A stretch of DNA of 64,000 nt, taken from the NCBI RefSeq assembly GCF_024502345.1, contig NZ_JALDNN010000001.1; one strand, given 5' to 3'. A model generated the notes under the pieces. It was not told the DNA's origin, searched no databases, and saw nothing but the letters and a program-made list of their open reading frames with translations. A program made the position numbers and the translations under genes. Shown piece after piece: positions 20,826 through 21,368 of the stretch (position 1 is the first letter of the stretch; each line of letters begins with the position of its first letter). This DNA comes from Escherichia coli (GTDB taxonomy: Bacteria > Pseudomonadota > Gammaproteobacteria > Enterobacterales > Enterobacteriaceae).

Positions 20826-21368
20826 ATTAAAGGCGGAAAACGAGTTCAAACGGCGCGCCCTAACCGTATCAATGGCGAAATTCGCGCCCAGGAAGTTCGC
20901 TTAACAGGTCTGGAAGGCGAGCAGCTTGGTATTTTGAGTCTGAGAGAAGCTCTGGAGAAAGCAGAAGAAGCCGGAGTAGACTTAGTCGAGATCAGCCCTA
21001 ACGCCGAGCCGCCGGTTTGTCGTATAATGGATTACGGCAAATTCCTCTATGAAAAGAGCAAGTCTTCTAAGGAACAGAAGAAAAAGCAAAAAGTTATCCA
21101 GGTTAAGGAAATTAAATTCCGTCCTGGTACAGATGAAGGCGACTATCAGGTAAAACTCCGCAGCCTGATTCGCTTTCTCGAAGAGGGTGATAAAGCCAAA
21201 ATCACGCTGCGTTTCCGCGGTCGTGAGATGGCGCACCAGCAAATCGGTATGGAAGTGCTTAATCGCGTGAAAGACGATTTGCAAGAACTGGCAGTGGTCG
21301 AATCCTTCCCAACGAAGATCGAAGGCCGCCAGATGATCATGGTGCTCGCTCCTAAGAAGAAACAGTAA
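20826..21368 (+). CDS. infC: Translation initiation factor IF-3 (AUU start codon)
   Basis: In-frame extension of the ORF-track entry back to ATT at 20826 gives the 180-aa IF3 beginning [35 protein letters not shown]. Confidence 0.93.

Follow-up and report, generated by a model that had tools for sequence, protein, structure and literature searches.

[quoted passage not shown] For IF3, the canonical codons are AUG, GUG, and UUG alone, and infC, which starts with AUU or AUC, is autoregulated by the factor that it encodes; this autoregulation is said to explain the phylogenetic conservation of the codon (PMC5499595). The control has been attributed to the AUU itself (PMC5499595; PMC1865079) and, according to two papers, a change of AUU to AUG abolishes autocontrol in vivo (PMC5499595; PMC2830850, with reference to Butler et al. 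1987, Brombach and Pon 1987, and Sacerdot et al. 1996). The AUU start of infC has been textbook knowledge since the 1980s, and the biology described here is not new.

An AUH codon that follows a strong Shine–Dalgarno (SD) sequence and heads the IF3_N domain is likewise found in other bacteria, with AUU in B. subtilis (PMC1865079), AUA in S. aureus, where Ribo-RET density was reported at the AUA start together with an extended SD (bioRxiv 10.1101/2025.06.19.660503), and ATA starts inferred in Deinococcus and Thermus (PMC2830850). These systems differ in the identity of the codon and in the length of the N-terminal tail, and operon control is also different, Bacillus relying on transcription attenuation by L20 and E. 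coli controlling rpmI at the level of translation. The AUU start of E. coli pcnB is, like that of infC, subject to discrimination by IF3 (PMC5499595; PMC4245954), and infC and pcnB are the two AUU genes in E. coli ribosome-profiling analyses (PMC4245954). Unlike infC, however, pcnB encodes an unrelated protein, poly(A) polymerase, is not autoregulatory, and lies outside the 64,000-nucleotide stretch of E. coli DNA that we analyzed (hereafter, the window). A further parallel is the autocontrol of fidelity factors on scanning 40S subunits, where a factor also sets its own synthesis through a suboptimal initiation site, but the factors are others, the site is a poor AUG context or uORFs, and the cis element shares no homology with that of infC.

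The locus in the window is like that of E. coli K-12, with the same gene at the same position and the order thrS-infC-rpmI-rplT-pheMST. The succession thrS-infC-rpmI-rplT, which is also the order in Enterobacterales, is given both by the ORFs and by RefSeq at the homologous locus. The features that bear on initiation at infC are as follows:

18894-20822, + strand: thrS, threonyl-tRNA synthetase, 642 aa (ORF list; RefSeq at the homologous locus)
20610-20638, + strand: sigma-70-like match TTGAGA-17-TAAAAT, 10/12, inside thrS and ~190 nt 5′ of the infC start (consensus scan)
20813-20817, + strand: SD sequence GGAGG, inside the last thrS codons TTG GAG GAA and 8 nt 5′ of the ATT
20820-20822, + strand: TAA stop of thrS, which shares the frame of infC and is its upstream boundary
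20826-20828, + strand: infC initiation codon ATT (AUU) (SD, RefSeq start, PDB N-terminus, conservation)
20826-21368, + strand: infC coding sequence, 180 codons plus TAA, IF3 (translation; TIGR00168, IF3_N, and IF3_C; PDB 8jsg_A)
20934-20936, + strand: infC codon 37, TTG (Leu), the start chosen by naive ORF finders (144 aa) and not the real start
21465-22071, + strand: rpmI (21465-21662) and rplT (21715-22071) (RefSeq transferred by offset from locus L001; ORF list)

The junction of thrS and infC reads CAA TTG GAG GAA TAA GGT ATT AAA GGC GGA AAA CGA GTT CAA. Both genes are in the same frame, GGT being the one sense codon that separates the thrS TAA from the ATT, and the thrS stop is therefore the in-frame upstream limit of infC. 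From 20826, 180 codons can be read as far as the infC stop codon, TAA, at 21366-21368. When all of the in-frame codons from 20823 to 20931 were enumerated, there were zero ATG, GTG, or TTG codons among them, the first being the TTG at 20934. From the in-frame stop up to the conserved IF3_N domain, ATT 20826 is the sole near-cognate codon preceded by an SD.

The 180-aa product of this frame is IF3. It scored 284.7 bits against NCBIfam TIGR00168 (the infC equivalog; cut-off 60 bits) over positions 2-170 of 170, and matched Pfam IF3_N (PF05198) over positions 1-70 of 70 (residues 15-84; 114.6 bits) and Pfam IF3_C (PF00707) over positions 1-86 of 86 (122.2 bits). Given this domain coverage, the start must lie 5′ of about codon 10-15. 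PDB chain 8jsg_A aligned with the product over residues 1-180 (E 1.3e-111), and the two are the same save for Val37Leu and the translated residue 1, which is Ile in the translation and Met in the chain. A 180-aa chain of E. coli IF3 opening MKGGKRVQ is present in eleven PDB entries, an N-terminus that is the one of the deposited sequence rather than of independent N-terminal sequencing, and the RefSeq CDS start, the PDB chains, and the UniRef IF3_ECOLI cluster member (P0001) agree on it. E. coli IF3 itself was reportedly sequenced as a protein by Brauer and Wittmann-Liebold in 1977. In strain E2863, RefSeq/PGAP annotates infC as 543 nt that begin 4 nt past the end of thrS, which is the homologue of 20826.

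An earlier note on this DNA had placed the infC start at ATT 20826, by the thrS stop, had derived from it a 180-aa IF3 opening MKGGKRVQ, and had suggested an alignment with annotated infC as a check. The sequence confirms the position, with the precision that the spacer is 3 nt and the ATT begins at the fourth base after the stop; the translation and the PDB chains agree with the protein described; and the RefSeq start in E2863 is at the homologous position. The note also took the AUU start to be the basis of IF3 autoregulation, with IF3 discriminating against non-canonical start codons, in agreement with the literature (PMC5499595; PMC1865079; PMC2830850). It gave established knowledge as its basis, which is appropriate.

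The initiation region is weakly folded. The predicted RNA fold of 20776-20875 was weaker than those of 199 of 200 dinucleotide shuffles (z +1.85), which speaks against a hairpin-based mechanism, and the GGAGG was unpaired in the MFE fold. As modeled, then, the ribosome binding site of infC is an open, strong site ahead of a weak codon. In an Rfam scan of 18000-24000, the Phe leader was the only hit and no curated family fell on the infC initiation region; the scan thus lent no support to a structured regulatory RNA at the AUU. In a consensus scan of the region for promoters and terminators, matches were no more numerous than in shuffles, and the sites that we list from it are accordingly leads only. 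One of these, the sigma-70-like match at 20610-20638, may be considered a weak candidate for an internal infC promoter; in K-12, promoters of infC inside thrS have been described.

Within the species, the region hardly varies. A 701-base query over it matched 5425 of the 5426 complete E. coli genomes, each with the annotation thrS/infC, and the 61 bases centred on the start were identical in 5416 of these 5425 (9 differ). The SD, spacer, and ATT of the window are those of the 5416 genomes, and the protein differs at residue 37 only. A 71-mer in which the ATT was replaced by ATG matched none of the 5425 genomes at 100%, in a search that covered the ATG variant only and required a perfect match. 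Since the initiation region is the same in essentially all E. coli, the mechanism known from K-12 was transferred to the window; on the strength of this near-invariance, we assume that the initiation region of K-12 is identical to that of the window.

To look beyond E. coli, species-representative genomes were scanned with a degenerate DNA pattern for a conserved IF3 motif, which gave at least 120 infC loci from many phyla. These cross-phylum loci are an arbitrary, non-random sample that comprises only those IF3s that keep the motif, and the counts that follow hold among the matches listed. An in-frame upstream stop was found in 116 infC loci, and in 46 of the 116 there was no ATG, GTG, or TTG between that stop and the Asn of INxxIR. 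A start was placed where a codon lay 4-25 codons 5′ of this Asn and had an anti-SD match of at least 5 bases. By this measure, ATT, ATC, or ATA with an SD was present in 87 of the 116 loci listed, and a canonical codon with an SD in 8; the best candidate start was ATT in 36, ATC in 25, ATA in 24, and TTG in 3, and the other 28 had weak SDs or ties. As a control, we took rpmI in the same listed loci, where the start was ATG in 72 of 75 recognizable cases, which indicates that the non-canonical start is specific to infC and not a trait of the taxa. GGAGG and ATT were invariant in the enteric relatives, and GGAGG stood before ATT or ATA in gammaproteobacterial loci. The differences among enterics ahead of INxxIR were third-position, synonymous changes (GCG/GCA, CGC/CGT, CCT/CCG, AAC/AAT), indicating that the frame codes from the ATT onward, and the more distant loci L083 and L059 had one amino-acid change each in this interval.

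Several variations on the arrangement were seen among these loci. The ATA starts (24 of 116 among the matches listed) include Shewanella, Geobacter-like, actinobacterial, and clostridial loci; ATA is about as frequent as ATC among the matches listed, and the statement in the literature that infC starts with AUU or AUC omits it. Extended SDs (GGAGGTG) were seen in Firmicute-type infC loci. In seven Cyanobium/Synechococcus-type loci (L010, L038, L040, L052, L058, L082, and L117), an ATG comes right after the in-frame stop; it has no SD, and the IF3 N-terminus is MPPRPRFDRR. Judging from these sequences, infC of marine picocyanobacteria appears to use ATG, and would be an exception both to the AUH rule and to the claim in the literature that AUU or AUC is used by all bacteria. 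Candidate ATG, GTG, or TTG starts are also present in other cyanobacterial loci (L014, L023, L096, and L113).

We are close to certain that 20826-21368 (+) is infC, encoding an IF3 of 180 aa that starts at AUU 20826 and that would be under negative feedback through this AUU. That IF3 autoregulates its synthesis in this strain is the K-12 mechanism transferred by analogy, and we hold it with high confidence. In this mechanism, the GGAGG at the end of thrS, with its 8-nt spacer, would recruit the 30S subunit and position it at AUU 20826, where fMet-tRNA would pair with the AUU, decoded as Met according to the literature. IF3 would destabilize, or speed the dissociation of, 30S initiation complexes formed on codons other than AUG, GUG, or UUG, such that initiation at its own AUU would fall when free IF3 is high and rise when it is low, a negative translational feedback. 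The repression would thus depend on IF3 and, to go by the literature, would be lost upon a change of AUU to AUG.

The alternative that fares best is that ribosomes terminating at the thrS TAA re-initiate at the AUU, and that such coupling, rather than de novo binding of 30S subunits, is the main source of initiation. The geometry of stop, 3 nt, and start is indeed kept in Enterobacterales, a Vibrionaceae symbiont, and Shewanella, in the variants TAA GGT ATT, TAA AGT ATT, TAA GCT ATT, and TAG GTC ATA. However, a strong SD at optimal spacing is conserved as well, and it is present where no in-frame stop is adjacent, as in Pseudoalteromonas (L011 and L045), Alcanivorax (L079), and many loci with a far stop. 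The candidate promoter-like site in thrS, together with the internal promoters described for K-12, would furthermore yield transcripts that carry infC but no translated thrS. The literature ascribes control to the AUU itself and not to coupling (PMC5499595; PMC1865079). Since an SD followed by AUH is retained even in loci with a distant in-frame upstream stop, we do not regard coupling as the main route and consider this explanation unlikely, although the 3-nt spacing leaves room for some termination-reinitiation coupling with thrS, which is geometrically plausible.

In another alternative, the AUU would do no more than fix a low, constitutive level of expression, in keeping with the general weakness of non-canonical starts, and not act as a feedback sensor. 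This, however, is hard to reconcile with the loss of autocontrol in vivo that is reported for AUU changed to AUG in PMC5499595 and PMC2830850. The cited literature also reports that overproducing or depleting IF3 alters the output of an AUU reporter and leaves that of an AUG reporter unchanged. Moreover, IF3 is abundant despite its AUU, at about 5500 molecules per cell, and the codon is no simple limiter of expression (PMC5499595). The use of AUH at infC versus ATG at rpmI in the same loci also suits a factor-specific sensor better than attenuation, and we judge a purely constitutive role very improbable.

A third explanation denies the AUU start altogether and has translation begin at TTG 20934 (GTG in other E. 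coli), which is the first canonical codon and would yield an IF3 of 144 aa. This start is the one returned by a mechanical ORF call, and the 144-aa sequence is found on at least 1000 contigs of a public protein collection, under the name “translation initiation factor IF-3”, as well as in PDB chain 5me0_Z. The earlier note had remarked that the ORF track picks this later start, and the track indeed lists a 144-aa ORF at 20934-21368 with TTG as its first codon in the window. An in-frame canonical start giving full-length IF3, which by the note would have spoken against its reading, is absent, as there is none before TTG 20934, and the ATG variant of the start had no perfect match in the 5425 genomes. 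A start at 20934 would delete positions 1-22 of IF3_N and 1-28 of TIGR00168, keeping only 23-70 and 29-170, respectively. Codons 1-36, which it would leave untranslated, are under constraint at the protein level, with mostly synonymous differences among enterics and INxxIR kept across phyla. Furthermore, no SD lies at a functional distance 5′ of 20934, the nearest AAGG being ~17 nt off, and codon 37, changed from GTG to TTG in the window, does not look constrained as a start. A start at 20934, to which we assign only a trace of probability, is effectively excluded by the truncation of the domain, the constraint on codons 1-36, and the missing SD.

Finally, read-through of the thrS TAA into a ThrRS-IF3 fusion that is processed later, for which the shared frame with its single sense codon GGT is the sole support, can be dismissed as vanishingly improbable, given that TAA is an efficient stop, that taxa whose in-frame stop lies far upstream also keep an SD followed by ATH, and that IF3 chains in structures begin at Met1.

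With initiation at AUU 20826 as the preferred reading, the ORF list gives a 144-aa IF3 because the first in-frame ATG, GTG, or TTG is the TTG at 20934, and the presence of the 144-aa form on at least 1000 contigs makes this artifact of the ORF track a common annotation error. ORF finders that admit ATG, GTG, and TTG only will shorten infC to 144 aa, and the artifact is to be expected at infC in any scan that uses such tracks. The mis-started chain, opening MSLREAL (protein P0016), is found in PDB 5me0 (chain 5me0_Z) and 5me1. Starts are also misplaced downstream in the window, where the longest-ORF rule over-extends two genes: rpmI is listed at 21450-21662, with 70 aa from GTG 21450 versus 65 aa from the annotated ATG 21465, and pheS (22509-23504) is given 331 aa from ATG 22509 versus 327 aa from the annotated start at 22521.

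Codon 37 is also where the window departs from the rest of the species. At position 20934, the window has T where each of the 5425 complete E. coli genomes has G, so that GTG becomes TTG and, unlike in those genomes, IF3 has Leu37. We considered whether the T might be an error or artifact and rejected this, as NCBI contains precisely this 180-aa protein with Leu37 (WP_256632867.1; MCQ7030447.1), which the protein collection lists for a single contig of 4.74 Mb. On the evidence of these records, Val37Leu is a real, private variant. Among 120 diverse IF3s in the matches listed, position 37 is Val in 37, Met in 25, Leu in 21, and Ile in 17. Because Leu occurs naturally there in 21 of these 120, we judge Val37Leu to be probably neutral, and functional importance of Leu37 to be unlikely. 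In particular, it is very doubtful that the change would act on function, for example by making discrimination between start codons more or less strict and so moving the set-point of autoregulation at the AUU. The substitution also turns an internal in-frame GTG into TTG.

The 5426 complete RefSeq E. coli genomes include no close representative of the lineage of the window; over 24 kb (9000-33000), the best complete E. coli genome is 99.2% identical, and infC itself is 99.9% identical. Upstream of thrS, on the minus strand at 16736-18370, an intact 544-aa ORF corresponds to the type III effector gene espL1, which is frameshifted in E2863 and is represented in K-12 by the arpB pseudogene. Between the infC stop and rpmI, a GC-rich 12-bp hairpin followed by a T-rich tail (21386-21413, + strand) is terminator-like, and falls within the area of the translational operator through which L20 controls rpmI. 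Farther downstream, 5′ of pheST, the Rfam Phe_leader family (the pheM attenuator) was matched at 22188-22312 on the + strand, with 75 bits against a gathering threshold of 55, as expected for this operon.
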